Both the position numbers and the translations under genes were made by a program. 64,000 nt of DNA from a virus: the IMG/VR virus record IMGVR_UViG_3300000976_000012, positions 1 to 64,000 of that record. The stretch is one strand, 5' to 3'. This document shows, one piece after another, positions 23,718-41,529 of the stretch (its first letter is position 1; the number at the start of each line of letters is the position of its first letter). Below the pieces are notes generated by a model. That model saw only the letters and a list, made by a program, of their open reading frames with translations. It did not search any database and was not told the origin of the DNA.

Positions 23718-24513
23718 CTAAATTGGTTGCCCTTCGTTTTTTGGTGATCTCCAGATCAGTGCCTTTAGGCTTCAAAGATTTGGGTGCAACGGGTTGCACG
23801 GTCTCTCCGTATGAAGCACCAAAATCCTGCTGCATCGCATTACTGAAGTCACGCACCGACGCCCCGGATTGTGATGCAGCACGAGATAACTGCTCCATAG
23901 CTTGAGCCTGTGCTTGTGACGCGCTCGTTACTCCGTTCATTTGGGCACTGCGACGGTCACCTCCTAGTATTCGCTGCTCCATGTCTCGACCAAACGCTTC
24001 AGCTAGCCGCTGAGTTATTGTTTCACGCATGTTGGAAAACCTATCGTCTTCGATATTTTCCAACCTGACCTCTGATATAGGGGAGCGTATTGCTCTACCT
24101 ATTTGCTGTATATTCGGGCCGGGACTAAACACCCTCCTTGTTGGGCTTTGCCCACCTTCAAATGTAATGAACCCTGTTCGATCCGGGGTGGACGCCGGGT
24201 CCATTCCCATAATGGCCTCACCCTGTGGTCGTACAAGACGATCAGAAAACAACATACCGGGTTCCGATTGCGCGAATGCGTCAAACAACTCTCTGTTCAA
24301 TAAACCACCTGTTGCAAATAGATTAGAGCGCGATGGGCGCTCTGCCTCTCTGAGCCGCAAGACAGCTATCGCTTCTGGGTCTCCGGGAAATGCACGGCGC
24401 AACTGGCGACTGGTCATGTTCTCGTAGTCGGGCACCATCTCGCCCCATTCATTCCGCATGTGGGCATGGTTGTTACTAAAGTGCCCTGATCGATGATCCT
24501 TGTTTCTAATCAT
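23710..24513 (-). CDS. hypothetical protein
   Basis: 267 aa with an ATGA overlap. The C-terminal region carries VQPVA (palindrome) and KKRRATNLDD. Confidence 0.6.
   Translation of the reverse strand: MIRNKDHRSGHFSNNHAHMRNEWGEMVPDYENMTSRQLRRAFPGDPEAIAVLRLREAERPSRSNLFATGGLLNRELFDAFAQSEPGMLFSDRLVRPQGEAIMGMDPASTPDRTGFITFEGGQSPTRRVFSPGPNIQQIGRAIRSPISEVRLENIEDDRFSNMRETITQRLAEAFGRDMEQRILGGDRRSAQMNGVTSASQAQAQAMEQLSRAASQSGASVRDFSNAMQQDFGASYGETVQPVAPKSLKPKGTDLEITKKRRATNLDD
23785..23798. repeat. 14-bp palindromic motif copy 7
   Basis: Lies inside the 3' end of 23710..24513 (V-Q-P-V-A), 68 nt upstream of the ParB-fold gene ATG. Confidence 0.9.
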
Positions 24514-24902
24514 ATCCGGAAGGCTCTTTTATTGCTGGTGGGGGCGACCTTAGCTTTTCTTGGTTCACGTCGTTGCTTTGCCACGGGCACAAACGACCGG
24601 GCAAGTGCGACAGCGGCCTCATGGCCGTCCACAGCTTCTTCATAGCTTGTGTAGCGCCACATCTCTTGATCTATGTTTGGGTACCCGTCTGCGAATATAA
24701 GAGTTTCCCAAAGTACAGGGCCACCATCTCCACTGGGGTTATGGTCTAACCCTAGAAACACAGTGCTGACCCACATACCATCAACTATATCTGTTTTCCC
24801 CACACATGCTCTATCACTGCCCATAGGTGCGTTAGCATACGGTGAAGGTCTGTCCAAAGGAACAGGGTTATTACCCTTATCAAGATCGTACCATGAAGTC
24901 AC
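24510..24902 (-). CDS. hypothetical protein, C-terminal KRAFRI
   Basis: 130 aa. GTG start in a GTGA overlap. Confidence 0.6.
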   Translation of the reverse strand: MTSWYDLDKGNNPVPLDRPSPYANAPMGSDRACVGKTDIVDGMWVSTVFLGLDHNPSGDGGPVLWETLIFADGYPNIDQEMWRYTSYEEAVDGHEAAVALARSFVPVAKQRREPRKAKVAPTSNKRAFRI

Positions 24903-25468
24903 AGTCGAATTGCTCGTTTATTATCACCGGATAACGCATCCGGATGAAGTCGCTTATCCACCTCTTCTTGAACACGTTCTTCAAACTCGTCTTCCATTTC
25001 CTTAAAGGAACGCTCCATCTTCCGTCGATCGTTTATTAATTGCATGTGTTTAGCACGATACTCACGTTCAATAGTGTCAGTATAATCTCGTGCTCTTTCT
25101 TTAGCCTCACGGATCAGTACATTACTGTGGCGGCGTACACTCTTCAGGGTGTTATTATAAACCTGCTTAGCTTTCGATAAATCCAAAAGCTCAAAATCAT
25201 CCTCACCCTTCAATTTAGTCATGAACGTACAGAATATATCAGCGCGATCAAATAAATCTTCATAGGCATCTTGGTGCTCAAAACTCATAAGATCAACACG
25301 GTCCTTAGCCAGATCAAGTATCCGGTCCATATCATGTAGGTCTTTATGAAAACCTAAGGGATCACCTGTGGCATCTCTATAAGAAGCATCACCCACCGTA
25401 GCCGCCACGCGTATACTCTCTGCGTTCGATCTCAGCACCTTTGTTATACCTGTTATACCGACGCACAT
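24899..25468 (-). CDS. hypothetical coiled-coil-like protein, C-terminal KRAIRL (start uncertain)
   Basis: 189-aa ORF overlapping 25389..25613 by 80 nt. A GTG near 25394 is an alternative start. Confidence 0.5.
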   Translation of the reverse strand: MCVGITGITKVLRSNAESIRVAATVGDASYRDATGDPLGFHKDLHDMDRILDLAKDRVDLMSFEHQDAYEDLFDRADIFCTFMTKLKGEDDFELLDLSKAKQVYNNTLKSVRRHSNVLIREAKERARDYTDTIEREYRAKHMQLINDRRKMERSFKEMEDEFEERVQEEVDKRLHPDALSGDNKRAIRL

Positions 25469-25613
25469 ATTTCTTCAGAGTAGGCTTTAGCTTCCTGCGC
25501 CAAAACAAATTCCACAAAGTGGTTCCTAGGGTCAACGCGAGCACCCACGCCAATAACTCTCCGTTATCAAACGTGCGTTCGACACCTGCCCAATCCATTA
25601 ACATTTTTTCCAT
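25389..25613 (-). CDS. small membrane protein
   Basis: 74 aa with a TM helix LLAWVLALTLGTTLWNLFW. Cassette leader precedes the ATG. Confidence 0.55.
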   Translation of the reverse strand: MEKMLMDWAGVERTFDNGELLAWVLALTLGTTLWNLFWRRKLKPTLKKYVRRYNRYNKGAEIERREYTRGGYGG

Positions 25614-25638
25614 AGTAAATTCCCTTTCGACTAATCGC

Positions 25639-25667
25639 AGCCTAGGGGAACCGACATTTTATGTCAA
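25639..25667 (-). promoter_or_regulatory. cassette promoter
   Basis: TTGACATAAAAT with a -10 TAGGCT at 17 nt. Confidence 0.55.
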
Positions 25668-25673
25668 GAGGAA

Positions 25674-26009
25674 TTATACAGTCGGGAAGCCGCTTTTTTC
25701 GATGTCATATTTGAACTTATATTCGACCGACATAGGCACGGTGAGCGTTGTGTTCTCAATACACACGTAAACCAGATGGTCTGTCTCTTCCATGGTGGCC
25801 GTCTCGGCTGGTGTCAGGAACGCTAGAAACCGGGTATTCTCTGAGTTCTTGGCTGTGACCTCGCGTTCGATAGGAGGATCAGCAGTAGGCACACTGATGC
25901 GGCACGTATAGTTACTGTCCAGCGTGATCAAATCATCGCTGTCAGCATCCCGGTGGCCGATTGCCCACGGGCGGGCAGTCCTACCCCTTGGTGTCGATCT
26001 GTTGCTCAT
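25674..26009 (-). CDS. hypothetical protein
   Basis: 111-aa ORF at the end of the fibre-associated gene run. Confidence 0.5.
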   Translation of the reverse strand: MSNRSTPRGRTARPWAIGHRDADSDDLITLDSNYTCRISVPTADPPIEREVTAKNSENTRFLAFLTPAETATMEETDHLVYVCIENTTLTVPMSVEYKFKYDIEKSGFPTV

Positions 26010-26238
26010 GCTCTGTCACCTCTATTTCGTCACCATCTATTATATCGATCATCTCCTCCGGTCCATCCTCAATATCGATTTCCCGTGCAGCGTCTCGATA
26101 GTCCGCCACATCCACACCCTCTGCGCGGTAGTCTTCCAAATCCAATGTATCCGTAACACGCACCTCTGATCCGGTCGTAATGACCTTGCCGGATGAAAGC
26201 GCACCGAACGTGATAAAAGATAAGAGGTCTCTAATCAT
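25981..26238 (-). CDS. hypothetical acidic protein
   Basis: 85 aa with an ATGA overlap onto the upstream gene. Confidence 0.5.
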   Translation of the reverse strand: MIRDLLSFITFGALSSGKVITTGSEVRVTDTLDLEDYRAEGVDVADYRDAAREIDIEDGPEEMIDIIDGDEIEVTEHEQQIDTKG

Positions 26239-26792
26239 GGATCGATGTTCAATGCTCGCCGCGTCTGAGTAAGAGACAACGTGCCGTCACCTGTCGTATC
26301 TACTTGTAGATCATCGCCCGCTGTAACTAATTCCGGTGTGACAACCAATGGGTTATCTGGATCAAGCCCATGGCGCCTCCAGAGGTCATCTAAGCGCCGT
26401 GCTTGCTCTGCTGTGAATGACTGACCAATTAAACCGGCTGAGTTGGTTGGGATAACCTGTACGTCATTCCGAATGAGGATACCTCCTTCGATATCCCATA
26501 TATTATTATTGGAGCCTTTGAGGGTGACTGAATACAGCCCGTCTTCAAATTTGATCATCCACCCGTTTATGATCTCTATGCTCTGCGCCAGTGTGGTACC
26601 TGCGACAGTAAATTCAGCGTTTCTGTTATGAGTTATCGGGTATCCCATCCCTGCTGGAGACGCCTCTAGCTCCCTGAGATCACGGCGGAATACCTCAGTG
26701 TCAAGTTCGTATGACCCTTCACTTAGCTGTGTCAGATAAGAGACAGGTACGATTATGTGTAATACATTCCATTTGACAATCAGAGAGGACAT
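26235..26792 (-). CDS. hypothetical protein (possibly fibre/baseplate-associated)
   Basis: 185 aa. Call is by position downstream of the fibre genes only. Confidence 0.5.
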   Translation of the reverse strand: MSSLIVKWNVLHIIVPVSYLTQLSEGSYELDTEVFRRDLRELEASPAGMGYPITHNRNAEFTVAGTTLAQSIEIINGWMIKFEDGLYSVTLKGSNNNIWDIEGGILIRNDVQVIPTNSAGLIGQSFTAEQARRLDDLWRRHGLDPDNPLVVTPELVTAGDDLQVDTTGDGTLSLTQTRRALNIDP

Positions 26793-26801
26793 ACCTGTTC
26801 A

Positions 26802-27071
26802 TTACTCAGCCGCAAAAGCCTCAGTGATAACCTGAGCTTCTTTGACGTCAGTAGCGCCGTCAGTAACGCGCTTGTAGAGATCAGTCTTCTCTTCTTCATT
26901 CCAACCCGGCTTGTCTTTCTTGATACACAGCCGATGTTCTTCATTAGCAATAAAAAGCTCAATGCGGTCTTTGGTCCACAGAGGCTCAGCAACCTCGTCT
27001 TCCGACTTAGCTTTTTTCTTTTTAGATAAAACGCTTTGGGAATTTGCCACTCCTGATCTTTTTAACACCAT
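26802..27071 (-). CDS. hypothetical protein
   Basis: Start moved to ATG 27071 with an AAGGAGA SD. 89 aa. Confidence 0.55.
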   Translation of the reverse strand: MVLKRSGVANSQSVLSKKKKAKSEDEVAEPLWTKDRIELFIANEEHRLCIKKDKPGWNEEEKTDLYKRVTDGATDVKEAQVITEAFAAE

Positions 27072-27084
27072 GATGTATTCTCCT

Positions 27085-27345
27085 TTATTCCTTAACCGTT
27101 GACCCACCATTATAACCGGGTGGTATGCTGGGGACAGCAGGTGGTGCTCCTTCAAGCGCCGTTATTTTCTGCTCTAAAAGTGCAACCCGTTGCAGCAAAT
27201 CAGTATTAGCATTCTCTAACCTCTTATTGGTTTGGTTCATAGCATCTATGTTTTTAGACGTTGCTACTAACCATGCTAGCGTCACACCCGGCTCGCCTGA
27301 GCCGTGCTCTTCTAACACCTTCTCCAATAAGTTTTCGTCAGTCAT
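27085..27345 (-). CDS. small coiled-coil protein
   Basis: 86 aa with a GGGAGGG SD. Contains palindrome copy 8, read L-Q-R-V-A. Confidence 0.55.
   Translation of the reverse strand: MTDENLLEKVLEEHGSGEPGVTLAWLVATSKNIDAMNQTNKRLENANTDLLQRVALLEQKITALEGAPPAVPSIPPGYNGGSTVKE
27181..27194. repeat. 14-bp palindromic motif copy 8
   Basis: TGCAACCCGTTGCA inside 27085..27345, 110 nt upstream of the next ATG. Confidence 0.9.
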
Positions 27346-27371
27346 AATACCCTCCCATAAAATATAGGATA

Positions 27372-27400
27372 CTTCTAGAGCACCTCACATTTTACGTCAA
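27372..27400 (-). promoter_or_regulatory. cassette promoter (variant TTGACGTAAAAT)
   Basis: TTGACG-17-TAGAAG directly after the stop of the 566-aa fibre-like gene. Confidence 0.45.
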
Positions 27401-27406
27401 GACACC

Positions 27407-29107
27407 TTACTCGTCGGTGGTACGGATAACGGTTGCTGAACCGCCTGCCGAACCTAACGTGCCGGTAGTTTCAAACGGTTTGATGGGAGATGCCCCGCCA
27501 TCGCGTACCCGAATGAACAAAGGACGGTCAGCAAGGTAAACCGACGTGAAGCTTTCCGATGCCGACCCTGCTAACTTATCCACGTAGGATACGAATGCAT
27601 CGTTTCCAAGGTTGGCATTGTTACTACTGAAGTTAGCCACGTTAGGCACGGCTGCTTCAGATGCGGCGGGATCGATGGTGAACGTATCACCTGTATAGCT
27701 TGTATAAACAAGCCGATGCTCAAGGCCGTTGTTATCAACCACCCGAATTGTACCAACAGATGGGGTATCCGTTGGAATTGCGGCGTTCATCTGCACGGTT
27801 GTGATATTATCCGTGGTCAATGCAGCGGCCAATGAGAACTGATCCTTTTGCAATGAACCACCGCTTTCCGGTCCTACAAGAATACGATCCTCGGCTGGTA
27901 CAAGCCCAGACGTGGTGAATACCACGTTGTTTGGGGGAACCTGCTGGACATTGGCAAGATCGAATAGCTTGTCCGATGCGGTCAAATCGTTAGGGTCGAT
28001 GCCAAGGCCGTAAGAGCCGATAATGGATGAGCCGGTCGATGCACCTGCGAATGGGATAGAGATCGAACGGTCAGTTACGGTCACGTTGACCTCAGCTGTA
28101 GCAGCCGACGTTCCGCCCGTGATCACATCGTTATCCGATGGGGCACTACCTGATAGCAACTGTATCCACATCTTGGTGCCAGCGGTCGTGCTGTCGATTG
28201 CAAGCAACTGACCTGCGCCACCTGCCCATGTAACCCCTTCAGGTTCTTGGAACGTGCCAGTAGGGTTGTCGATGTCAATCTCATTGGTGATGCCTCGGAA
28301 CAACTCACCGGGAAGGCCATACACGGTCTCGACTGAGCCGTCACGGGTCAACCATTTGGTGCGCTCAAAGAAATCATTGATCGACTGCGGTCCTAAATCC
28401 CAATCCGAGTAGTAAAACTCGTCTGCGCCGTTGCCGTTAATGTCGAGACCAATATAGCCTTCATTCGAGTTCGTGATGCCTGTCATCAGCGCAACCGTAG
28501 CTTCGGCTGTCTGATTGTTCAGATCATCGCTCTCGGAAAGCGCAAGCACGTTGTTACCGCGCTGTGTGGCGTTGATGGAAAATTCAGAGTACGTCTTACC
28601 AAAGTTACGAGATGTACCGATCAAACGCCGGGTATCTATGTCGGCCCCACCGTCACGTACCTTAATCATAAAGCGATGCGAAATACCGGACGCTGCGTCT
28701 GAGTTCAAACCACCATTAGAGTTCCACCAATCATCCGCTATGATTGCGCCATTCTGTATGAGTTGTATTTGCGGACTATTACCGAAATTCACGATACCGT
28801 CATAGATCGTCGCGCCGGACGATTGAATGATCGATCCATCGTACAAATGCTCTGCTGCATTGTCGTCAATGTTATATCCATTGAGCAACGTGATAATGTT
28901 GTCAGTAGAACGATCCGATGGAGCGTCCTTGGTGATGTCCACCTGATCATCGCCAACAAACGACGCATCGTCTGCTAGACTTCCGAGCCAACGGTGGGCT
29001 TCGATTACAGTTGCGTAACTTGGTGACGACCCACCATGGTCATCACCTATGTAGCGGACGTTTTTGGTAGCTTGATCAACGCTCCAGTCAGTAGCGACTA
29101 TGGGCAT
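27407..29107 (-). CDS. tail fibre / virion structural protein, putative
   Basis: 566 aa, Gly/Ser/Thr/Asn-rich and beta-rich in composition. Adjacent to the 903-aa fibre-like gene. Confidence 0.5.
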   Translation of the reverse strand: MPIVATDWSVDQATKNVRYIGDDHGGSSPSYATVIEAHRWLGSLADDASFVGDDQVDITKDAPSDRSTDNIITLLNGYNIDDNAAEHLYDGSIIQSSGATIYDGIVNFGNSPQIQLIQNGAIIADDWWNSNGGLNSDAASGISHRFMIKVRDGGADIDTRRLIGTSRNFGKTYSEFSINATQRGNNVLALSESDDLNNQTAEATVALMTGITNSNEGYIGLDINGNGADEFYYSDWDLGPQSINDFFERTKWLTRDGSVETVYGLPGELFRGITNEIDIDNPTGTFQEPEGVTWAGGAGQLLAIDSTTAGTKMWIQLLSGSAPSDNDVITGGTSAATAEVNVTVTDRSISIPFAGASTGSSIIGSYGLGIDPNDLTASDKLFDLANVQQVPPNNVVFTTSGLVPAEDRILVGPESGGSLQKDQFSLAAALTTDNITTVQMNAAIPTDTPSVGTIRVVDNNGLEHRLVYTSYTGDTFTIDPAASEAAVPNVANFSSNNANLGNDAFVSYVDKLAGSASESFTSVYLADRPLFIRVRDGGASPIKPFETTGTLGSAGGSATVIRTTDE

Positions 29108-31915: not shown

Positions 31916-31929
31916 TGCAACCCGTTGCA
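31916..31929. repeat. 14-bp palindromic motif copy 9
   Basis: Intergenic, 6 nt after the HNH stop and 23 nt upstream of the fibre ATG at 31893. Confidence 0.9.
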
Positions 31930-31934: not shown

Positions 31935-32378
31935 CTAGTAAAGCCAGAGTATATGGTCTCCCTCGGAAAACGGCAATAAGAATACGTGATCCGAGACGGG
32001 AATACCCAAGTCACCTTTGCGCCCTTCGATCCTGCGACGCTGGTTCTCACCCGCTTCCACAAGCTCAAGATGCGCGGGATTAACACACAATGCGTTCTCA
32101 CACTTATGATCAAGGTTCATTCCGGCTGGCACCCGCATGGGTAGGGTGCGTGGTACTATTCCAGTTAGCCATGCGATATAAACGTGCGCCCGGACGCCCC
32201 CTGTAACCACACCACCCGGATTGAATGTTCCGTATATAGCCCGTGATGAAAATCTCTGCCCGCCACGGCTCTTGCCTCCTGTCCATTGCCAGCATCCTGT
32301 ATCAGGGTCCTCCTCAATATAATTGGTGAAGCGATTGACCACCTCGCATACATCTGGTTGGCGATCCTTGACACACAT
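31935..32378 (-). CDS. HNH homing endonuclease
   Basis: CWQWTGGKSRGGQ...LDHKCENALCVNPAHLELV is an HNH_3-type core. Confidence 0.75.
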   Translation of the reverse strand: MCVKDRQPDVCEVVNRFTNYIEEDPDTGCWQWTGGKSRGGQRFSSRAIYGTFNPGGVVTGGVRAHVYIAWLTGIVPRTLPMRVPAGMNLDHKCENALCVNPAHLELVEAGENQRRRIEGRKGDLGIPVSDHVFLLPFSEGDHILWLY

Positions 32379-32857
32379 CAGTCTAAGTCCAGTGTCACAC
32401 CGCGCTTATCAGTGCCTTTGTCGGACCTAGGTGTTTTCGTCGGCTTCATTGGATGATCCGGGAATGACGGCTGACTAGACAGCCCATCAAACATATACGA
32501 TCTCTCAGGCAATGATTGTCGTTGTGGGCGACGCGGTATAGATAATGCCTCCATTTCAGCTACAGCGTACAGCGTAATGGTTTGCCGCGTCTGTTCTTGT
32601 TGCATTTCCTGAACACGATACTGAACTCCATCATGTTCTAGGTAAAAATCGCCAGACTGCATATACGCAATCAATTGGTATGCGTTAGCACCATTATTAT
32701 CCTTCATATACTGGTCTATCTCTAGTCGCATAGTGTGGCGAGTACCTGTAACAACGCGCTGTGAGCCGCCTCCGATAAAATTCCTATTGACCCCATCAAG
32801 CTCGGTGCTCAACTCTAAGTTGATGTACGGAATATCCTCAACATTAATCGTCGTCAT
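32378..32857 (-). CDS. hypothetical protein
   Basis: Start moved to ATG 32857 with a GGGAGGG SD. 159 aa. Confidence 0.5.
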   Translation of the reverse strand: MTTINVEDIPYINLELSTELDGVNRNFIGGGSQRVVTGTRHTMRLEIDQYMKDNNGANAYQLIAYMQSGDFYLEHDGVQYRVQEMQQEQTRQTITLYAVAEMEALSIPRRPQRQSLPERSYMFDGLSSQPSFPDHPMKPTKTPRSDKGTDKRGVTLDLD

Positions 32858-33605
32858 TGAAGCCCTCCCAATGCTCAACGTCTGTTCCCGGATTGGCCAA
32901 TAGATAATCACGAATTTGGTGCTTCACGTCAACCGGGTAATGGCCAGCCTGTCTGTTGCACTTGGCGTGTGCCAGCGTCAGATTATGTTCGTCGTCCACT
33001 GTCTTTAATAATTGAGCAACGCGACGCGCTTCTCTTAACAGCCGTTTCTGCTTCCGGGTCAGCGACGTGCCCTCCTCCATCAGCTTGGTGAAGCTCTCAA
33101 CCCTCTGCTTGGCCGTCTTGTACTGCTTCTTGGATACAAGATGCTCAATAGTGATGTCGTCACCGCCGTCTTCTGCGCAGCCGATCATGGTGTGGCCGCA
33201 ATACCAGCAATCGTCGCCGTCTCGCATAAGGAGCCGAGGCGTCATACGTTTGTTCAGTGACTTGGACGGCTGGCGCTTCGGTTCTTTGTATCCGTCCGGA
33301 CGCGTCACCTTGGGCAGCTTCTTGCCTGCAATAAACGTATCCCAATGGAGCCGGGTATCCTGCGTCCACGTGAGTGCCCCGTTTGTCTTGCGGTACACAA
33401 TCTGTGTGACCATCTTGAATTTGCCCTTGACGATCTTCGGCACACGGTATCGCAGCACCTCGTATTCGTTTGTAGGTTTGTCCCTCTCGCACCCGCACGC
33501 TTCCAGCCACTTCACGAACTCATCACCGCGCTGTTGTAAGGTCTTCGTGATTTTGAGACTGGAGCCGTAAACTTCAGTCATATCGATGTGATATTTGAAG
33601 TTCAT
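32844..33605 (-). CDS. HNH endonuclease with N-terminal extension
   Basis: DGDDCWYCGHTM...ITIEHLVSKK...LTLAHAKCN matches an HNH core. Confidence 0.7.
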   Translation of the reverse strand: MNFKYHIDMTEVYGSSLKITKTLQQRGDEFVKWLEACGCERDKPTNEYEVLRYRVPKIVKGKFKMVTQIVYRKTNGALTWTQDTRLHWDTFIAGKKLPKVTRPDGYKEPKRQPSKSLNKRMTPRLLMRDGDDCWYCGHTMIGCAEDGGDDITIEHLVSKKQYKTAKQRVESFTKLMEEGTSLTRKQKRLLREARRVAQLLKTVDDEHNLTLAHAKCNRQAGHYPVDVKHQIRDYLLANPGTDVEHWEGFNDDD

Positions 33606-34204
33606 GCTTTCATAAGTTCCTTCAGATGTGACAGTAGCTGGATCACTCGATCTTCTGCCATATGCTCATATAGCCCGCCCAGCGACGATGGTTCTTTATC
33701 AAAGCCGGGTACGAATGTGGACGTCGGTACATCAATAGGAACCGTGTCGGCAAACTGATATAGCATAATCACCGTGTCATCATTGACCGCAATGGTGTGA
33801 ATTTCGTCGGCTCGACAATAGTAACTTTGACCCGTTTCATATCGCTCTTCTGCCACGCGCTCAAGATCGACTTCTCCAATCCACTCAAATCCATTGCCGT
33901 CAAGCAAGGGAGTTCTCCAATCAAACTTTTGATACCTAGTCATATCGTTCGGCAACATGTGACGCCTGACCGGGTGTTGGCTATATCTATAGTGGCCGGA
34001 CTGACCGGCAAGCACTTGCGTGTGGAATGGGTATCGATGATCGTGGGGGCATATTACTTCTGGAGCGGTTTGCCCACCTCTTTCAAAGAAGTACACTTTA
34101 ATGGTTAGTTCTTCTGACCTGTGCACGCACAAATAATCCAACCCCTTAGTGTGGAAATTGGAAAAACTATTACGGGCCATCACCTCTATTGGGTCATAAA
34201 TCAT
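33602..34204 (-). CDS. cupin-like metalloprotein (paralog A)
   Basis: CPHDHRYPFHTQVLAG and ADEIHT motifs are shared with 41923..42519. Confidence 0.5.
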   Translation of the reverse strand: MIYDPIEVMARNSFSNFHTKGLDYLCVHRSEELTIKVYFFERGGQTAPEVICPHDHRYPFHTQVLAGQSGHYRYSQHPVRRHMLPNDMTRYQKFDWRTPLLDGNGFEWIGEVDLERVAEERYETGQSYYCRADEIHTIAVNDDTVIMLYQFADTVPIDVPTSTFVPGFDKEPSSLGGLYEHMAEDRVIQLLSHLKELMKA

Positions 34205-34551
34205 AGGTGCACCGCTCTTTTTGTGGACAAAGGTGCCGCCTGCCTTTTCTTAGCCAAAACCCTGTTCAGCCACGTATCTTCGTCTTCATCAGTTTCAAAT
34301 TCAAAAAAAAGGATATCATAATCAGTGTCGATTTCATCTTCTCTACCATGATCCCACCAATCATTTGTTGTAAAAGAGTTAATACTAACAATATGTAAGT
34401 CTCCAAAACGATTTTTATAACCGTCTCGACAGTGATATCTCGTGGATAATTCTGCTAAAAAAGGAGGTAAACCAACGCCATCATGTGCCCATACCCTAGG
34501 GTCTAATGCGCGAATAAATTTCCTACCTACACAGATGACACTGTCAGTCAT
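34201..34551 (-). CDS. hypothetical protein, C-terminal KRAVHL
   Basis: 116 aa with ATGA overlaps at both ends. Confidence 0.55.
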   Translation of the reverse strand: MTDSVICVGRKFIRALDPRVWAHDGVGLPPFLAELSTRYHCRDGYKNRFGDLHIVSINSFTTNDWWDHGREDEIDTDYDILFFEFETDEDEDTWLNRVLAKKRQAAPLSTKRAVHL

Positions 34552-34958
34552 AGGTGAATTGCCCTTCTTAAGCGCTCTTCTTCAAGCACTGCTGCTTTGC
34601 GGTCTCGGTTCATATTATTGGCCTGTTCTTGCATTTGTACTTTCTCTAATGCTCGCTGTTCGGCAAGATCAACACCAGCACGCATGGCTTCGTCCATACT
34701 CAGGCTAGTGGAAATACGTCTGAGATCACCACTCAACAATCGAGAATAGAATGTATCATAATCAATTACAGTAACTCCACTGTGTCTCGCCTCAGTAGCC
34801 TTGCGGGTGTCTGTCCTAGATGCGACTAAGATGGTACTTGCACCATACGCACTATCCACAATATAATGGCCTTCATTGCGCGCCATGGTTGACCACGTGA
34901 CACGGTCCATGAATACCCCGTTTAGGTTACCTCTTCCTGTGAAACATATGGCTGCCAT
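34548..34958 (-). CDS. BRCT-domain-like protein, C-terminal RRAIHL
   Basis: AICFTGRGNLNG...STILVASRTDTRKATEARHSGVTVIDYDTFYSRL resembles a BRCT fold. Confidence 0.5.
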   Translation of the reverse strand: MAAICFTGRGNLNGVFMDRVTWSTMARNEGHYIVDSAYGASTILVASRTDTRKATEARHSGVTVIDYDTFYSRLLSGDLRRISTSLSMDEAMRAGVDLAEQRALEKVQMQEQANNMNRDRKAAVLEEERLRRAIHL

Positions 34959-35021: not shown

Positions 35022-35035
35022 TGCAACGGGTTGCA
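35022..35035. repeat. 14-bp palindromic motif copy 10
   Basis: Intergenic, 5 nt after the stop at 35040 and 9 nt upstream of the -35. Confidence 0.9.
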
Positions 35036-35039
35036 CGCA

Positions 35040-35636
35040 TCACACTCCTATAATAACGGCTCGTTTGCCTGTCCGATCTTCCGGTGCCCTGCCGTACAGG
35101 CGCTCATTCACTCGGCGCTCGACTTCGGCTTCGAGGTTACCTTCCTTGAGAGAATACTCGGCAACCATATTTTCCATGGCTGTCTCCATTTCACTCATCT
35201 GTAGTTGTGCAGCGGTCTTCTCCGCCATGGCGTGCATGATCTCATCTTGGCAACGCTGCTTAACTGCGTGCACTTCTGCACGGGCCTCATTCTGTGCCAC
35301 CGCCGTAGCGGCTTCCATAGCCGTGTCTTCAGCAGCAACCATCTTTCGGTTAGCCATGGCGTTGATCTCATCAAACAACGCACTCCGCTGCGACGCAGCG
35401 TCTCCCCATAGTATCGTGTCCAATACCAGCAATACATTCTCGATCTCATAGAAGTTATGGTTCTTCTCATCGCAGTACCGGGTATAAGCATCGTCCTCAC
35501 GCTCTTCCTTATCCTCTATGTCTTCGTCTTCCATGTTGGACAGGGGGAATTCCATCAGCCCACGCAACCGCTCTAGCGCAGCCTTCATATCAGGCACCCA
35601 CTTAGCCAATAGTGCTTGATACTCTGAAGGTGACAT
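35040..35636 (-). CDS. hypothetical coiled-coil protein
   Basis: 198 aa. C-terminus GKRAVIIGV is a variant tag. Confidence 0.6.
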   Translation of the reverse strand: MSPSEYQALLAKWVPDMKAALERLRGLMEFPLSNMEDEDIEDKEEREDDAYTRYCDEKNHNFYEIENVLLVLDTILWGDAASQRSALFDEINAMANRKMVAAEDTAMEAATAVAQNEARAEVHAVKQRCQDEIMHAMAEKTAAQLQMSEMETAMENMVAEYSLKEGNLEAEVERRVNERLYGRAPEDRTGKRAVIIGV

Positions 35637-35950
35637 TATTGCCCCGGTGGTATTTGATAAGTGTACAGTCCGCGATGAACGTGCCTCTTATCTACTCGGT
35701 AACCGCCAAAGCGTTCTTTTCGGAGATTGCGTAACTGAGCAGATATGGAAGCGGGCGGGTCTCCGGTAACTTCTGCTATTTGATCCAGCGTGCGCCACTG
35801 GCCGTCCAACATGAGGTCTCTAACCCTTCGTATCTGCTCGGTTAAACGCCTAGTTGCATCCGGGTTCATATCTGGCCCACTGAAATCAAGGTTCGGTCGT
35901 ATTCTTCTGCGGCGTGATCGCGGGTTCACTTGCTCTGGATCATACGTCAT
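35636..35950 (-). CDS. winged-helix DNA-binding protein, putative
   Basis: Start set at ATG 35950 (ATGA overlap). WRTLDQIAEVTGDPPASISAQLRNLRKERFGGYRV looks wHTH-like. N-terminus has VNPRSRRRRIRP. Confidence 0.55.
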   Translation of the reverse strand: MTYDPEQVNPRSRRRRIRPNLDFSGPDMNPDATRRLTEQIRRVRDLMLDGQWRTLDQIAEVTGDPPASISAQLRNLRKERFGGYRVDKRHVHRGLYTYQIPPGQ

Positions 35951-36168
35951 TTGAATGTCCTCCCTGTTCGGTTTACCAGCCACTCAGCAACCCGGACAAG
36001 CGGGTGCTCTTGCAGCACGTAACCCATGTCTCGTATCGCCAGATGGAACGCCATGGATTGCGAGGCATAGGTATCAGCCACTACCTTGATATTGTCCAAC
36101 GTCCGGGGCACGCCCCATCTGCGACACATGATCCGGGCAGCGCGCCATTGATGATCACCGCCCCTCAC
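35947..36168 (-). CDS. hypothetical protein
   Basis: 73 aa. GTG start in a GTGA overlap, ATGA overlap at the 3' end. Confidence 0.45.
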   Translation of the reverse strand: MRGGDHQWRAARIMCRRWGVPRTLDNIKVVADTYASQSMAFHLAIRDMGYVLQEHPLVRVAEWLVNRTGRTFK

Positions 36169-36458
36169 AGCGCGATCGCTCTCTTATTCGTAACAGGTGG
36201 GATGTATGGCTCACGTCTGTAATTCGGGTCTCCGGTCGGATCATACTTCTCGACAGCGATCATCCGGGGGATGCCCTCACAATGCTCCGCTGTGGTGGTG
36301 CGCTCTTCGCCAGCCGGGTTCATCACGGGGATGCTATTCCGGTCCATCGGATTGAGTGACGTCACTTCGTATATGGTTTCGTCTTGTGGCAGGCTGGGGA
36401 TCACTTGGTCCAGTGTCACCTTCTCGCCAATGAAGCGTCCGTAGTGTGTGCCGTTCAT
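36165..36458 (-). CDS. hypothetical protein, C-terminal KRAIAL
   Basis: 97-aa ORF overlapping its neighbours by 4 nt. Confidence 0.55.
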   Translation of the reverse strand: MNGTHYGRFIGEKVTLDQVIPSLPQDETIYEVTSLNPMDRNSIPVMNPAGEERTTTAEHCEGIPRMIAVEKYDPTGDPNYRREPYIPPVTNKRAIAL

Positions 36459-36694: not shown

Positions 36695-36769
36695 GCAAAA
36701 AGCATAAAGGGAGCACCGATTTCTCGACGCCCCCTGCGACCCTTCCGGGTTACTTGTTCGTGGTAGCGA

Positions 36770-36922: not shown

Positions 36923-36996
36923 GTGCTTGCTCCTGTTATTGGAAACTCATGTCTAGCAGGTCGAGGCCGTCTTGACAATGATTACAGGTTGTACGC

Positions 36997-37428
36997 TCAC
37001 CGAATACCTGTTTGGATATAGGCCGCGCAAACTTGTCCCGTTAATAACATATAGCGATCAGGTACGCCGCGAACAGAGCCGAACGTAATGACTTTATCAG
37101 GTAGACCACTGGCGACTTCTTTGATCTGATCCGCTGTCATGTCTGGGTGAAGTGCGGATGTGTAATATCGCAGCGTATCATCACACGTTTGGGTGATCCG
37201 GATCAGGGCAAGTTCGGAAACCGCCGTGCCATCGGTGTCTTGAGCAACGGCCCACACACCATTGGGGCGTACCATGTCCATTGCCGATTGCGGCTGGACT
37301 TCAGTTGCTTCTGCAACCTGCACCATCTCGACCGGATCATCCGGTACGGCCTCCTGTGCTGCAACCGGGTGCACGGCAACGGCCAGTGCGAGAGACGCCA
37401 TAGCGGCAATTCGAGTAAACATTTTCAT
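36997..37428 (-). CDS. secreted/periplasmic protein, putative
   Basis: Start moved to ATG 37428 (AGGAAGGA SD). Signal-peptide-like MKMFTRIAAMASLALAVAVHPVAAQEA. Confidence 0.55.
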   Translation of the reverse strand: MKMFTRIAAMASLALAVAVHPVAAQEAVPDDPVEMVQVAEATEVQPQSAMDMVRPNGVWAVAQDTDGTAVSELALIRITQTCDDTLRYYTSALHPDMTADQIKEVASGLPDKVITFGSVRGVPDRYMLLTGQVCAAYIQTGIR

Positions 37429-37442
37429 GGTAGTGATCCTTC

Positions 37443-37673
37443 CTACTTTCTTGGTGTGATGGTCAACGTGACCTGATCGCCGACTTCCATGCCACAATCG
37501 GCTGGTATCTCCAAGTTCTCATTGGAACCCAAATTCAGGGTGGCAATTCGTTCAGATGTGATGGAGGTGGGCTTACCGTCTGGGAAGCCGTGCTGATACT
37601 GCGCTTTCTTGGTGTCTGTGATCTTCACCACGTCCGCATAGATCTCAATGTAATCACCGTCTTGCATTATCAC
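37443..37673 (-). CDS. hypothetical protein
   Basis: 76 aa, preceded by an unusually long leader of ~125 nt. Confidence 0.5.
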   Translation of the reverse strand: MIMQDGDYIEIYADVVKITDTKKAQYQHGFPDGKPTSITSERIATLNLGSNENLEIPADCGMEVGDQVTLTITPRK

Positions 37674-37800
37674 ACTCTCTTATACGTGGGAGAGGAAGGC
37701 GCGTTTCAAGATGCGTTTCCGGTGCGAGCCTTGCGGCGGCATCCCGTACTTTGTCTCGCGTTGCGGTCCTACCCTGTCCCTTGTCTCTGTCTTTATAAAT

Positions 37801-37829
37801 ACAATAGCGCAACCCACATTTTATGTCAA
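37801..37829 (-). promoter_or_regulatory. cassette promoter
   Basis: TTGACATAAAAT with a -10 TATTGT at 17 nt. The palindrome lies 7 nt upstream. Confidence 0.6.
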
Positions 37830-37836
37830 GAGGTAT

Positions 37837-37850
37837 TGCAACCCGTTGCA
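37837..37850. repeat. 14-bp palindromic motif copy 11
   Basis: TGCAACCCGTTGCA, intergenic, 7 nt upstream of the -35. Confidence 0.9.
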
Positions 37851-37940
37851 CCGAATTATGTAGGTCGGGGGGCAGCGGGGAAAGCTGTAGTTCCCGTCTC
37901 GCTTGCACACTCGGCTGATCAAGACGCCTACCCCCTAAAC

Positions 37941-38339
37941 TCATATATTTCTCTTCGCTTCCAGCTTCGCAATCGCCACACGTGCTTCAGGTGGCGGGTT
38001 CTCGATCTCTTCCATGCCGTGTATTGCAGCTTCTGCCCCGGACGGGAAAAGCTCAATAGGACTGACGTAGTTGAAGGTCTCCGGATCAACCCGGTTAAAG
38101 CGCAGCGCTGCTAGATGATTGGTATCGTGACAGCCCACCCACCCGGCGCATAGGTGCCCGTCATTCTGGTGACAGTAGAATAGCGCGTGTGCTCCCTTAA
38201 TGATCTGGTCCATCGTCTCACCATCATACTGCGGTAGCTTCAGGTACTCATGCGCATCCCATATGCCGGACGGCACATCAGTGCGATAAGGGCAAGTGCC
38301 GCACGGCACCTTGCTCGGACAGGGTAGTTCTTCACTCAT
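37941..38339 (-). CDS. Cys-rich hypothetical protein
   Basis: 132 aa with CPSKVPCGTCPYR...FYCHQNDGHLCAGW, possibly a metal-binding cluster. Confidence 0.6.
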   Translation of the reverse strand: MSEELPCPSKVPCGTCPYRTDVPSGIWDAHEYLKLPQYDGETMDQIIKGAHALFYCHQNDGHLCAGWVGCHDTNHLAALRFNRVDPETFNYVSPIELFPSGAEAAIHGMEEIENPPPEARVAIAKLEAKRNI

Positions 38340-38524
38340 GCTTCAGTATCTCGAACACGGAACTCGCGTGCGGTTCCTTCGTCCTGCTCTTCCTCGATCC
38401 GACACGCCGCTGCGTCGCCTTCTTCGTGGAACGAATAAATCATTTCCCACTCGTTCTTATACGGCTTGGGCGGCGCAACGCGAAAGCGGCGCTCGACTAC
38501 AAATCTGAGATGCTGTTCGGTCAT
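38336..38524 (-). CDS. hypothetical acidic protein
   Basis: 62 aa. Cassette leader precedes the ATG. Confidence 0.5.
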   Translation of the reverse strand: MTEQHLRFVVERRFRVAPPKPYKNEWEMIYSFHEEGDAAACRIEEEQDEGTAREFRVRDTEA

Positions 38525-38550
38525 TGTTCATTTTCCCTTTCGACACTCAA

Positions 38551-38579
38551 TCAATAGCGTGGCTAAGATTTTATGTCAA
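38551..38579 (-). promoter_or_regulatory. cassette promoter
   Basis: TTGACATAAAAT with a -10 TATTGA at 17 nt. Part of a 38-bp segment identical to 58639..58676. Confidence 0.6.
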
Positions 38580-38587
38580 GAGAATAG

Positions 38588-38601
38588 TGCAACGGGTTGC
38601 A
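38588..38601. repeat. 14-bp palindromic motif copy 12
   Basis: Intergenic, 7 nt after the stop at 38608 and 8 nt upstream of the -35. Confidence 0.9.
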
Positions 38602-38607
38602 CCAAAA

Positions 38608-38778
38608 TCATAAGACATCCAGTACGTCTCTCATGATCCAAACCGACTGTGGTTCACCTGCCAGCGCTAATAGATACGTTATGCCGAATGCAGCACAGCC
38701 TGCGACCGCGTACACTACCAGTGACCACAGCAACCCGCTGCGCACTCCTTTGAAAAACTTGCGTCCCTCCGGTGTCAT
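38608..38778 (-). CDS. small membrane protein (below the ORF-track cutoff)
   Basis: My translation: MTPEGRKFFKGVRSGLLWSLVVYAVAGCAAFGITYLLALAGEPQSVWIMRDVLDVL. ATGA overlap with the upstream gene. Confidence 0.45.
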   Translation of the reverse strand: MTPEGRKFFKGVRSGLLWSLVVYAVAGCAAFGITYLLALAGEPQSVWIMRDVLDVL

Positions 38779-39245
38779 AACGTGATTGCCCTCTTCACCC
38801 GACCTAGCTTGTGCATACTCTTATACTTGCGACGCTCTGCCCGGTTCATATTCTCCATCTTGCGACGGTGCTCTCGAAGCTCTTCGTACTCCTGTGCGTC
38901 CAATGTCCGCTGCGCAGTCTGTGCCGCCGCCCTATCGGATGCGTTCAGATCAATCTCCATGTCAGGTAGATCGATGTGTGCCTGTGTCGTGTCCGGTTGG
39001 ATCACCAAACTATCCTCACGCATAACATAGGCCAGCAAGACTTGCCGGATGGCTATAGTGATTGGCTCCCCGTCATCCTCCACTGATCTCCGATAACTGA
39101 TCAAGCCGTCTTCATCGGGTTCGGGTACAGTGGTGTCCAGCCAGATGGATGTCATGTGACCGTCACGTGAGTTCCTGCATCCGATGATCAACCGGGCGCC
39201 TACTTTCGCATTGCGAAGCGTTATATTGATTATGCGCGTTGCCAT
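38775..39245 (-). CDS. hypothetical protein, C-terminal KRAITL
   Basis: Start set at ATG 39245, 5 nt after the upstream stop. 156 aa. Confidence 0.55.
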   Translation of the reverse strand: MATRIINITLRNAKVGARLIIGCRNSRDGHMTSIWLDTTVPEPDEDGLISYRRSVEDDGEPITIAIRQVLLAYVMREDSLVIQPDTTQAHIDLPDMEIDLNASDRAAAQTAQRTLDAQEYEELREHRRKMENMNRAERRKYKSMHKLGRVKRAITL

Positions 39246-39249
39246 CTGC

Positions 39250-39501
39250 TTACCAGAATACCCACCATGTCCAATTGCCTTTGACAACAATACCAACCGC
39301 TATCACCAATACAATGATCCCTGCAATAAACCACGCGCACCCTATGTTGCTTGTCCTGTCGCTCTCGGCGTTCGGAGCGGGCGTAATGTAACTGGTCATG
39401 GAAACCAGCAATGCAATCTCACACCATATCAACGCACCTACCACTACCATGCCTAGCACCGCCAATATGTAACCGGCTACTGTCATCATCATCATCTCCA
39501 T
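39250..39501 (-). CDS. small integral membrane protein
   Basis: 83 aa with two to three hydrophobic helices. Confidence 0.6.
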   Translation of the reverse strand: MEMMMMTVAGYILAVLGMVVVGALIWCEIALLVSMTSYITPAPNAESDRTSNIGCAWFIAGIIVLVIAVGIVVKGNWTWWVFW

Positions 39502-39610
39502 GTCGCATACTCCCTTTCTGGTTAAATTCCTGTTTCCACTCCTACTGGCTCATATCTCTCTATGCTAGTCCCGTGTGTTTCCCCCGGTAAACTGCGGGTA
39601 TGCGCCCCTA

Positions 39611-39961
39611 TTAGTTTCCGTGAGCCTTTTGATCATAATACAGCGCGTCGCGTATTTCCTCTATGCCCTCGGCATCCTCTGTGTTCCTGAATGCGCCCTC
39701 TTTGTTGATCTCATCGAAATCGACTTGGATGCGCTCATGTAGTATTGCCAGCATCTGATCACTAAGTTGGTGATTGGACCCTGTTTTATAGAGGATGCCG
39801 TCATCTACTGCCTGCTGGTTCATTGTGACTTCACACATCAACCTAGGCACCGTGCGCTGTGGGTCTTCTTGCCAATTAACCCCTACTGTGATTGTGGGCA
39901 ATCCGTCCCCTTGCTTCCGGCCATATGTGAACCGCGTGTTCTCCATGGTGATACGCTTCAT
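39611..39961 (-). CDS. hypothetical protein
   Basis: 116-aa ORF with a purine-rich SD region. Confidence 0.6.
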   Translation of the reverse strand: MKRITMENTRFTYGRKQGDGLPTITVGVNWQEDPQRTVPRLMCEVTMNQQAVDDGILYKTGSNHQLSDQMLAILHERIQVDFDEINKEGAFRNTEDAEGIEEIRDALYYDQKAHGN

Positions 39962-39980
39962 CGTTTCATCCTCTCTGCCC

Positions 39981-40196
39981 TCAATGCGTAGACAACGGGT
40001 TCCGGTATGCGTCCGCGCTGGCCACGATGTCTCCGTTACCGTGTAACGTCCCGTCTGGGTCTTCTATTGCAACTGTGACTGAAGCGGCGGCGCGCTTCCC
40101 TGCCTCTGTGATCTCTTCTGACGTGCGACCGCAACCGATGCACACGTTCTTCTCTAGCCTGCATACACCGATGCACCTGATTGTGTCGTTTGTCAT
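39981..40196 (-). CDS. small Cys-rich protein (DUF1289-like, from memory)
   Basis: Contains CIGVCRLEKNVCIGCGRTSEEI. Confidence 0.5.
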   Translation of the reverse strand: MTNDTIRCIGVCRLEKNVCIGCGRTSEEITEAGKRAAASVTVAIEDPDGTLHGNGDIVASADAYRNPLSTH

Positions 40197-40495
40197 GTCG
40201 CGTATACCTCAAAAACGGTGCAATCATTGACGGCTTGCATAAGTCTACTCACGAGGCTTCGGAGACACGGCTCCCTGCTGACATGTGCTTCCTTGCAAAA
40301 CCACTTCTCGCTTGCAGGCCAGTAATTAACAACGACAGGCGTGTCTCGATATAAAATACGTAATTGAATGTGCCATCCCTTATTAGACACCCTCCATAAT
40401 ATCTGGGGATTTACACGCATAAAACGCCGAATACGCTCCGTGCCAATGCGATTGTTTTCGTACCGCCTCATTATTGATGTGTTTGTTCTTCCCAT
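40193..40495 (-). CDS. hypothetical basic protein (start uncertain)
   Basis: ATG 40495 overlaps the upstream stop (TGATG). GTG 40522 is the alternative. Confidence 0.45.
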   Translation of the reverse strand: MGRTNTSIMRRYENNRIGTERIRRFMRVNPQILWRVSNKGWHIQLRILYRDTPVVVNYWPASEKWFCKEAHVSREPCLRSLVSRLMQAVNDCTVFEVYAT

Positions 40496-40758
40496 CAAAA
40501 GTATTCTTTGTCTTCTAGACACACATGTGGATCAATGCGCTGTCCGCACTTACAGATATACTCCAGTGCAACGGGTTGCAGCGAATGGTCAGCTTCCAAT
40601 GCAACTTCTCCGAGCACGATGTGCTTCCCATTACCTGCGAAGTAATAGTCAGCAGCCCACTGTTCTTCACCCGTTCCAGCATATGCGTCGCGGATGCGTT
40701 GCTCTACTTCCTGCCATGCAAGCCGGGAAACCTTCAGGATCGTGTAGGTGCAGCTCAT
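40495..40758 (-). CDS. hypothetical protein
   Basis: 87 aa. Contains palindrome copy 13, read L-Q-P-V-A. Confidence 0.5.
   Translation of the reverse strand: MSCTYTILKVSRLAWQEVEQRIRDAYAGTGEEQWAADYYFAGNGKHIVLGEVALEADHSLQPVALEYICKCGQRIDPHVCLEDKEYF
40567..40580. repeat. 14-bp palindromic motif copy 13
   Basis: Lies inside 40495..40758, about 45-72 nt upstream of the next start. Confidence 0.9.
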
Positions 40759-41051
40759 ATCATCAATTCCCTTATACGGTTCTGCAAGACATGCTGTTCA
40801 CCTCCACATTTTTTGATGTAATCAAACTGATCTAGAGCGCGCTGTAGGTTTCCAGAAAGTATTCGTTCAGCCAAACACTTACAACTAAAACCATTATGCT
40901 TAGATACGATAGGATCACCTTCGTGATAAAGAGTGTGAGTATCCTTCTCTTCATGCCACCTTATGGCAAAGCCACCCACGTCAAAAGTAAGCAAAGAATT
41001 GGAGCTATTAGGAAGAATGGAACGTGTGCCTCTATGCAACTGATTGCTCAT
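40755..41051 (-). CDS. hypothetical protein
   Basis: 98 aa with a TAATG overlap onto the upstream small ORF. Confidence 0.5.
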   Translation of the reverse strand: MSNQLHRGTRSILPNSSNSLLTFDVGGFAIRWHEEKDTHTLYHEGDPIVSKHNGFSCKCLAERILSGNLQRALDQFDYIKKCGGEQHVLQNRIRELMI

Positions 41052-41212
41052 TATTTTGTCCCTCTCGTTTTGTGACGGAATTTCTTCCCTCTGTTATGTG
41101 GTCCTAGCAACCCGGGACCGCGCAAGCCGGACATGCCACCTGCTTTAGGACATGCGATCCTACACTCCATGCGTTGACGTATCTCTGTGCACTGGCATCC
41201 GTCTGTGATCAT
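41051..41212 (-). CDS. small Cys-rich basic protein (below the ORF-track cutoff)
   Basis: My translation: MITDGCQCTEIRQRMECRIACPKAGG...KKFRHKTRGTK. It fills the gap exactly, with ATGA and TAATG overlaps. Confidence 0.35.
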   Translation of the reverse strand: MITDGCQCTEIRQRMECRIACPKAGGMSGLRGPGLLGPHNRGKKFRHKTRGTK

Positions 41213-41529
41213 ATCCTTGTTGCCCGCTTTCTTATTGGAGTGGCCGGGGGAGGCAACGGCGCAGGTTGATCTTTGACGCGTACTTGATCTTTGGCTTCTT
41301 CAAGTGCCTCAAAATATGCGCGACAAGCTATATCGCTAGCCCACTCCTCCAATTCTCGCTCTGAAGGTCCGATCCGTATCAATCCAAACAGATAACGCTT
41401 TGGCTTAGGCACGCTCATCCGCTCTGAGTGGGTTAGCCAGTCAAGCAAGTTCCCTCCGGCTGCGCGAAAGGTCTGGATCATACGCTCGATCTTATCTTCA
41501 GCGCTATCATCAGCCATTTCTAGTTCCAT
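41209..41529 (-). CDS. hypothetical protein, C-terminal RKRATRI
   Basis: 106-aa ORF. Confidence 0.55.
   Translation of the reverse strand: MELEMADDSAEDKIERMIQTFRAAGGNLLDWLTHSERMSVPKPKRYLFGLIRIGPSERELEEWASDIACRAYFEALEEAKDQVRVKDQPAPLPPPATPIRKRATRI

Follow-up and report, generated by a model that had tools for sequence, protein, structure and literature searches.

A recurrent basic-alanine-hydrophobic C-terminal peptide on unrelated proteins of an uncultivated marine siphovirus-like phage

We analyzed a stretch of 64,000 nucleotides (positions 1 to 64,000 of the IMG/VR record IMGVR_UViG_3300000976_000012; hereafter the window), which is part of an uncultivated, siphovirus-like marine phage, and found that seven unrelated minus-strand open reading frames (ORFs) in it have the same kind of C-terminus, the hexapeptide [KR]RA[IVFT]x[LI]. 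The best explanation as a whole, to which we assign a probability of roughly 55%, is that the motif would be a C-terminal short linear peptide tag of this phage lineage, read by one partner. Taken on its own, the proposal that a peptide tag is read by a common partner appears very probable. An earlier note on this DNA, made by reading the letters, had listed the seven hexapeptides, and we confirmed both their coordinates and their codons (Table 1). Two variants that it mentioned, GKRAVIIGV* (35040) and KRKRA* (52666), are also present, and so are the upstream prolines, which in four carriers lie 3-6 residues before the motif. A longer pattern, P-x-[ST]-[NT]-K-R-A, is common to four tails, while at the end of the 41209 protein PPPATPIR precedes KRATRI, so that a PPKR-like stretch is continuous with the motif (PPPATPIRKRATRI). 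The carriers include two tandem pairs (24899/24510 and 34548/34201).

In order to determine whether these ends exceed what composition predicts, we used a set of 98 called proteins and 97 junctions in the window. The statistical test of C-terminal hexapeptides that the earlier note had proposed gave a strong excess, with 7 exact matches against 0.002 expected from amino-acid composition. At the DNA level, the pattern ARMGRGCNNYNNNNNTRTG has 6 matches against 0.37 expected, all of them at exact-end junctions, and a degenerate DNA pattern of the motif falls in frame at gene ends in every case and never in non-coding DNA. In 13 of the 98 proteins a relaxed core, R[AG][VLTIF]x[LI], lies among the final 9 residues (0.21 expected), and the maximum reached there in 2000 shuffles was 3. 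Outside the last 9 residues the core is not enriched (6 of its 19 matches, against 7.4 expected by chance). Chance was rejected as the origin of the motif on both counts, exact ends and relaxed core, and about one in eight window proteins carries the tag. Two matches away from the terminus were set aside: the one in the 1644..2951 protein belongs to an N-terminal segment inherited in that family, and the one inside the portal protein is not kept by relatives. A third, ENKRAFHL at residues 196-203 of ThyX (15988-15999, minus), is encoded by AAT AAA CGA GCA, the same 12 nt as in the 24899 tail; it is probably a coincidence, given that matches away from the C-terminus occur at chance frequency overall.

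Besides the seven strict ends, the window holds five extended forms and one weak form (Table 1). With the weak form at 21249 included, the exact ends number 8 in the window and 2 in a relative described below. In the five extended instances, 2-3 extra residues follow the motif, and in three of them, as well as in a homologue of the 34548 protein (P0070), an Asp stands immediately after [LI], that is, at the position where the exact-end forms have their free carboxylate. A near-identical variant sequence of the 26235 tail has RRAVNIDP. The 550-amino-acid protein 11371-13023 (minus) also contains an internal SAVTLLDV (residues ~72-79) which echoes its terminal RAVTLLDL* (residues 543-550). The earlier note had spoken of small, early proteins. 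Several extended-form carriers are not small ORFans, among them this 550-amino-acid protein, encoded before the portal gene, and a conserved protein of 185 residues. We saw no sign that the carriers are early. The same sigma-70-type promoter precedes genes throughout the window, and the gene just ahead of the portal gene is one of them.

Table 1. Positions of the C-terminal motif and of other recurrent elements (all on the minus strand where marked (-); positions are those of the window unless prefixed by a contig)
Feature	Position	Carrier or context	Junction with next gene
KRAFRI+TGA, exact	24510..24530 (-)	130-aa protein 24510..24902	ATGA overlap with gene 23710..24513
KRAIRL+TGA, exact	24899..24919 (-)	ORFan 24899..25468	GTGA overlap with gene 24510..24902
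KRAVHL+TGA, exact	34201..34221 (-)	34201..34551 (116 aa)	ATGA overlap with gene 33602..34204
RRAIHL+TGA, exact	34548..34568 (-)	BRCT-like 34548..34958 (136 aa)	ATGA overlap with gene 34201..34551
KRAIAL+TGA, exact	36165..36185 (-)	ORFan 36165..36458 (97 aa)	GTGA overlap with ORF 35947..36168
KRAITL+TGA, exact	38775..38795 (-)	ORF 38775..39296 (start codon uncertain)	ATGA overlap with 56-aa ORF 38608..38778
KRATRI+TGA, exact	41209..41229 (-)	41209..41529 (106 aa)	ATGA overlap with 53-aa ORF 41051..41212
KRAVIIGV+TGA, extended	35040..35066 (-)	35040..35636 (198 aa)	last gene of operon
KRRATNLDD+TGA, extended	23710..23739 (-)	23710..24513 (267 aa)	next gene overlaps 8 nt
RRALNIDP+TGA, extended	26235..26261 (-)	26235..26792 (185 aa)	
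KRGVTLDLD+TGA, extended	32378..32407 (-)	32378..32911	
TRAVTLLDL+TAG, extended	11371..11400 (-)	550-aa protein just upstream of portal gene	
GRGVSL+TAG, weak	21249..21269 (-)	21249..21866 (205 aa)	
Promoter, -35 element	~58652, 54010, 52669, 45367, 44392, 43559, 38579, 37829, 36694, 35012, 27400, 25667, 22680, 21915, 19429, 17903, 16649, 15442, 14915, 14185, 13055 (-)		
16-bp palindrome, examples	58661-58674, 44499-44512, 38588-38601, 35022-35035, 31916-31929, 23785-23798, 11416-11429, 9687-9700; L149:899-915, L153:8635-8650		
Second tag	62027-62039, 59253-59265, 52679-52691, 20869-20881, 20833-20845, 14962-14974, 9568-9580 (-)		

The codons of the motif indicate what is being conserved. Over the motif codons, the last one excluded, the first and second codon positions have pairwise nucleotide identities of 0.67 and 0.73, whereas the third, with 0.34, is at the random level. 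The remark in the earlier note that codons differ between tails was borne out: Arg is written with AGA, AGG, CGA and CGG, that is, with both the AGR and CGR families (R, purine), and Ala with GCA, GCC and GCG (GCN in 7/7). The 21-nt tag sites have no DNA repeat in common. A repeated DNA element, promoter or terminator underlying the motif was discarded on this ground and because the DNA pattern is confined to in-frame gene ends. A twin-arginine translocation (Tat) signal, a membrane-targeting helix and a frameshift site were considered and dismissed, for wrong position, too short a motif and lack of a slippery sequence. Selection acts on the peptide, not merely on the RNA.

The orthologues of two carriers lead in the same direction. 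A pattern search with the promoter-leader sequence of the phage (see below) retrieved a relative, IMGVR_UViG_3300044993_000080, with ~66% DNA identity around recA; we examined ~36 of its 84 kb. Its orthologue of the 34548 protein (L153:7793-8539) ends with RRAIVL*; a non-coding stretch of ~170 nt and a promoter lie downstream. The further homologue P0070, on Logan contig L149, ends with RRAINLDED*; there the next gene overlaps by one base and has its ribosome-binding sequence (GAGGA) inside the DED codons. In a three-way alignment, these BRCT-like proteins have in common an N-terminal domain of ~75 residues and the terminal RRAIxL, and the intervening 60-170 residues cannot be aligned. The orthologue of the 21249 protein (L153:17763-18563) ends with KRRVVRL*, where the window protein has GRGVSL*. 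Thus both of the carriers that have an orthologue in the examined part of the relative keep the tail (2/2), the other carriers having no orthologue there; absence from orthologues, which the earlier note had named as a refutation of its hypothesis, was not observed in close relatives, P0070 included. Three further ends may be degenerate tags: ...CRRANLCFSL* (59269-60216, minus), kept in the relative as ...CKRANLCFSLP*; ...SKLRAL* (20280-20936, minus), against ...DKLRKIA* in the relative; and ...KIKRANPGNPS* (L149:45-299).

More distant genomes present a different picture. We reached 144 loci in IMG/VR and metagenomes via the structural proteins, with ~1750 distinct genes, and found 2 matches to a looser motif; the 26235 protein is the sole carrier with a homologue in them. 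This protein is conserved beside a 566-amino-acid protein common to >100 related contigs, and its 42 homologues in distant relatives lack the RRALNIDP tail. Small proteins that share the invariant pattern STVFLG..H..P..ET..R..A..H make up a widespread family, which includes the 24510 protein and for which metagenomes and NCBI records supply 56 or more members; 56/56 homologues of the 24510 protein stop soon after the conserved domain, without a tail. Its absence from distant homologues marks the tail as a lineage-specific add-on and does not point to a lack of function. An AlphaFold2 model of the 24510 protein, made with the family alignment as input, has a mean predicted local distance difference test score (pLDDT) of 88. 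Residues 1-100 are mostly above 90 (one block of ten scores 73), the last three blocks of ten score 85, 64 and 70, and secondary structure ends by residue 110, so that in the one carrier modelled the tail is predicted to be an unstructured extension. A comparison of this model with the PDB gave no similar fold.

Otherwise the carriers have little in common. All-against-all BLASTP found no similarity among them, which rules out that they are paralogues, and searches with Pfam and PHROGs returned neither a common family nor a known domain, save a weak BRCT-like match for the 34548 protein. The 24899 protein has zero homologues among 5.8 billion proteins, and a search of 1.84 billion representative proteins yielded no genuine homologue of the 36165 protein. 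The 23710..24513 protein is weakly similar to capsid proteins. A terminase assignment for the 11371..13023 protein was unconfirmed by Pfam, PHROGs and PDB sequences; its sole support is the position of the gene and weak homologues located upstream of portal genes.

All seven exact ends stop with a TGA that shares an ATGA or GTGA with the start of the following ORF, the 4-nt overlap which the earlier note had pointed out. The hexapeptide might accordingly be a functionless by-product of coupling, namely a Shine-Dalgarno (SD) element plus spacer, read in the frame that the overlap fixes. Such -4 overlaps occur in 7/7 exact ends against 26/97 junctions in the window (p = 1e-4) and 17/40 in the region (p = 0.0025). 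Further, the K-R-A codons are purine-rich and AGR-biased: of the Arg codons that the motif has at overlap sites, 6/8 are AGR, compared with a genome-wide share of 20% (p = 0.0013) and with 1/7 in the non-overlap variants (Fisher p = 0.03), and all eight codons at overlap sites end in a purine. An intergenic ribosome-binding site of the phage (AAGAGGGC, gene 61675..62094) reads AAG AGG GCN, and at the 23710/23202 junction the distance from motif to ATG is kept within 2 nt despite a shifted stop. However, pairing of the K-R-A codons with the anti-SD is weak, at -2.2 to -6.3 kcal/mol where they are the best site (just -2.2 for AAA CGA GCA of the 24899 gene), and their spacing is 6-10 nt; the SD elements that this phage uses (GGAG, GGGAG and AAGGGA types) stand 4-8 nt before the start codon, with ~-6 to -10 kcal/mol for the GGAG type. 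At 2/7 sites another stretch outpairs the K-R-A codons, and 2/7 sites use CGA or CGG. Neither the random third positions and switches of Arg codon family nor the Ala (GCN in 7/7) and the two hydrophobic residues are accounted for by an SD, the latter being an objection that the earlier note had raised and that holds. The 19 remaining -4 junctions carry other sequences (the note had counted about 13; 19 is the number by the new gene calls), and the DNA motif never appears in non-coding DNA.

The motif is also present where nothing is coupled to it. The tag codons of the exact ends lie 10-17 nt upstream of the overlapping start, and the distance to that start is fixed in these seven; it is not in 35040, 11371, 26235, 32378, 21249, L153:7793-8539 and P0070. 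Downstream of the 35040 gene, which ends its operon, there is a palindrome and then a promoter, with no coupled gene; a 49-nt gap separates the 11371 gene from the next one; and the distances from motif to start differ in 26235, 32378 and 23710. The orthologues keep the motif without a coupled gene or with a separate SD. The motif is thus independent of the geometry of the downstream start codon, and a mere by-product of coupling is unlikely. The seven exact-end sites resemble SDs embedded at ATGA overlaps in being purine-rich and AGR-biased. The motif as a whole differs from such SDs in its weak pairing and long spacing, in a conservation that depends on codon position and in its presence where no start is coupled. 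On the other hand, the AGR enrichment at the seven overlap sites suggests that the tag codons double as a weak SD, and AAR-AGR codons probably also serve in this way there. The SD role proposed in the earlier note therefore survives as a probable weak one at overlaps, with weak pairing and a spacing longer than that of phage SDs. In this dual coding, the last codon (Leu or Ile) together with TGA creates the start codon of the following gene, within ATGA or GTGA, and the purine-rich, AGR-biased K-R-A codons probably act as a weak SD for termination-reinitiation. A nascent-peptide effect, by which the six residues slow release at the UGA within the ribosome and favour re-initiation at the overlapping AUG or GUG, would account for both the peptide-level conservation and the 7/7 overlapping starts. 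It is very improbable: in two orthologues, and in six instances of the extended or non-coupled kind, the motif stands 2-3 residues before the stop or has no overlapping start, and the motif is not known to match any arrest motif.

Two further explanations concern how the tails arose and where they go. A linker-tail-start module could have spread between gene boundaries by recombination, leaving a peptide with little or no present function; that the tails are lineage-specific add-ons, the two tandem pairs of carriers and the P-x-[ST]-[NT]-K-R-A common to four tails would all agree with this. But synonymous sites are saturated with codon positions 1 and 2 kept, which requires ongoing selection on the peptide; similarity of flanking DNA was looked for and none was detected; and orthologues keep the tail though the adjoining 60-170 residues were replaced. 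We regard such a junction cassette as quite improbable. Alternatively, the tail might dock its carriers on the capsid interior, scaffold or portal for packaging or assembly. The logic would be that of the T4 internal proteins, which are very diverse and whose sole common feature is a short terminal peptide, the capsid targeting sequence (PMC3012670). The phage encodes an HK97-type capsid, a portal and a prohead protease, and extended tags are found on the portal-adjacent 550-amino-acid protein, the 23710..24513 protein with its weak similarity to capsid proteins and the neighbour of the 566-amino-acid protein. In T4, however, the peptide is N-terminal and cut off by the prohead protease, whereas the tag here is C-terminal, has no recognisable protease site and is unrelated in sequence. 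Neither the prohead protease nor the scaffold-like protein of the phage carries it, and the 550-amino-acid protein is unconfirmed as a terminase. The tag has no likeness to the T4 sequence or to the cargo-loading peptides of HK97-fold encapsulins, the latter being Gly/Ser/Leu-rich and C-terminal while the tag is basic-Ala-hydrophobic. We give targeting to the virion little credence.

We return to a tag with one reader. The tag would have the form [KR]-R-[A/G]-hydrophobic-x-[L/I], then a free carboxylate or 1-3 mostly acidic residues, and unrelated proteins would carry it behind a flexible linker in which Pro or Lys is often abundant. The binding site of the partner would have to take two basic residues, a small one, hydrophobic residues at i and i+2, and then a negative charge. 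Tails that bind a hub are a well-known arrangement: the β-clamp motif QLxLxL, the T4 gp45-binding tails and the DDDIPF of SSB are short, flexibly linked, and bring unrelated proteins to one hub. The tag resembles them in having hydrophobic residues at alternating positions, [IVF] (Thr once) at 4 and [LI] at 6; unlike the β-clamp motif (QL[SD]LF / QLxLxL), it lacks the Gln of position 1, and its position 2 is basic, not hydrophobic ([KR]-R). We came across no clamp gene in ~82 kb, which comprised the window, ~8 kb past its upstream end and 10 kb past its downstream end. The tag is also like a class II PDZ ligand, hydrophobic-x-[LI]-COOH, in 9/10 exact ends; the exception is the 41209 end, where Thr takes the place of the first hydrophobic residue.

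Among known sequences, the RRKKAI end of MuA comes closest, though the resemblance appears partial. The MuA degron (CILEQNRRKKAI) is ClpX C-motif 2 (PMC12723719, PMC5143411). Both are phage-borne, C-terminal, unstructured tags in which a basic cluster is followed by Ala-hydrophobic (KKAI in MuA, [KR]RA[IVF] here), and they differ in that ~13 unrelated proteins of one phage carry the tag here, against one protein. By this analogy a ClpX-like reader, that is, a host AAA+ unfoldase/protease, would be the best single guess, although a rather unlikely one. With a reader of this type, the tag would signal remodelling or turnover, as RRKKAI of MuA does, and a degron would fit the small accessory proteins well.

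Several points weigh against the tag with one reader as proposed here. The AGR bias and the 7/7 association with -4 overlaps imply an RNA-level constraint on the same codons too. AGG before the Ala codon also occurs in two orthologues without a coupled start, so that inheritance, and not selection, may explain some of the codon bias. The partner was not found: none of PDZ, TPR, clamp or Clp appeared in a Pfam scan of ~49 window proteins. A degron would be odd on the 550-amino-acid portal-adjacent protein and on a protein in a structural-looking cluster, and, unlike in the MuA degron, x-[LI] always follows Ala-hydrophobic here, with up to five residues in the extended forms. Among ~75 genes of the relative, 2-3 carriers were found, and the evidence of conservation comes from two orthologue families and one related phage.

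The genome in which the tag occurs has other recurrent elements. All window genes are on the minus strand. Besides a portal, a prohead protease and an HK97-type capsid protein, they encode a helicase, RecA, class II ribonucleotide reductase, dUTPase, ThyX, PAPS-reductase-like and TauD-like proteins and three ParB_N-domain proteins; a lambda-like tail module lies just outside the window start, and DnaB, PolA and primase lie past its end. Sequence identical or near-identical to that of the phage is present in JGI sample 3300001202 (BBAY72) and Logan run SRR2835677. There was no match among GenBank phages, and the relatives reached via structural proteins are distant (maximum 67% identity, for the 566-amino-acid protein), too distant for judging the conservation of the tag. 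A sigma-70-type promoter, TCTTGACATAAAAT plus a -10-like TAnnnT, is repeated in ~22 near-identical copies on the minus strand, many of them followed by a conserved leader, GTCGAAAGGGA, which supplies the SD, and the genome is split into many short operons. The promoter-leader is also found in IMGVR_UViG_3300044993_000080. A 16-bp palindrome, GTGCAAC-NN-GTTGCAC, has ~25 sites in the window, often just upstream of a promoter, and may be a terminator or an operator; the three ParB_N-domain proteins may bind it. Where it falls in coding regions, 13/15 copies are in a single frame reading [VLM]Q[PRQ]VA (p = 3e-5), and in 11371, 23710 and P0070 it is located 45-75 nt upstream of the tag. The three ParB_N proteins cluster at 45364-53948 (minus) with the PAPS-reductase-like protein, the TauD-family dioxygenase and a methyltransferase-like protein, which suggests a DNA-modification module. 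In the accessory region between tag-bearing genes there is an HNH endonuclease gene (HNH_3) at 31935-32378 (minus) and a weak, sub-threshold HNH match at 32844-33605 (minus).

A second recurrent tag, [IV][DN]PPKR[KR]R, resembles a nuclear localisation signal (NLS). It is found at the N- or C-termini of RecA (NPPARRKK, residues 5-12), a RuvC-like protein, the portal and the 61675, 52666 and 14940 proteins, and twice in the 20280 protein; PolA (L067:1643-4525) ends with a related form, SPRKRKRVCV*, and the relative has NPPAR[RST] in four proteins. The corresponding 13-mer, AYCCACCNAARMG, has 7 matches against 0.04 expected. Its first Pro codon is CCA in 8/8 cases, compared with a genome-wide usage of 27%, and constraint on the DNA or RNA may thus play a part. 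Another terminal docking peptide may exist in a replication-module protein of ~372 residues (L067:6445-7563, L151:11784-12917 minus), whose ...SDDVPF* end (...DDDLPF* in the relative) resembles the acidic C-terminal tail of SSB. The two tags could conceivably form an address code, with the KRA-hydrophobic-x-L tail on up to 13 proteins and the NLS-like [DN]PPKR[KR]R on DNA-handling proteins, each routing its carriers to their own destination in the infected cell or virion; diverse small effectors might, for example, be loaded into the HK97-type capsid for co-injection. This is a speculative idea, and probably wrong. If it were true, it would amount to a protein-sorting system, of which no case is known among siphoviruses of ordinary size.

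Eukaryotic viruses are well known to use short linear motifs through which a single reader binds many unrelated proteins. For phages few examples are known, namely clamp-binding tails, SSB tails, degrons and the capsid targeting sequence of T4. The C-terminal tag described here is new, its general kind is known, and the number of carriers is moderately surprising. The locus is a clean natural case of dual coding, in which six codons specify a peptide under selection, contribute to a start codon and probably act as a weak ribosome-binding site as well. If found, the reader, for which a protease, a chaperone, a replication hub and the capsid are candidates, would offer a single experimental handle on many otherwise uninterpretable proteins, most of them ORFans.

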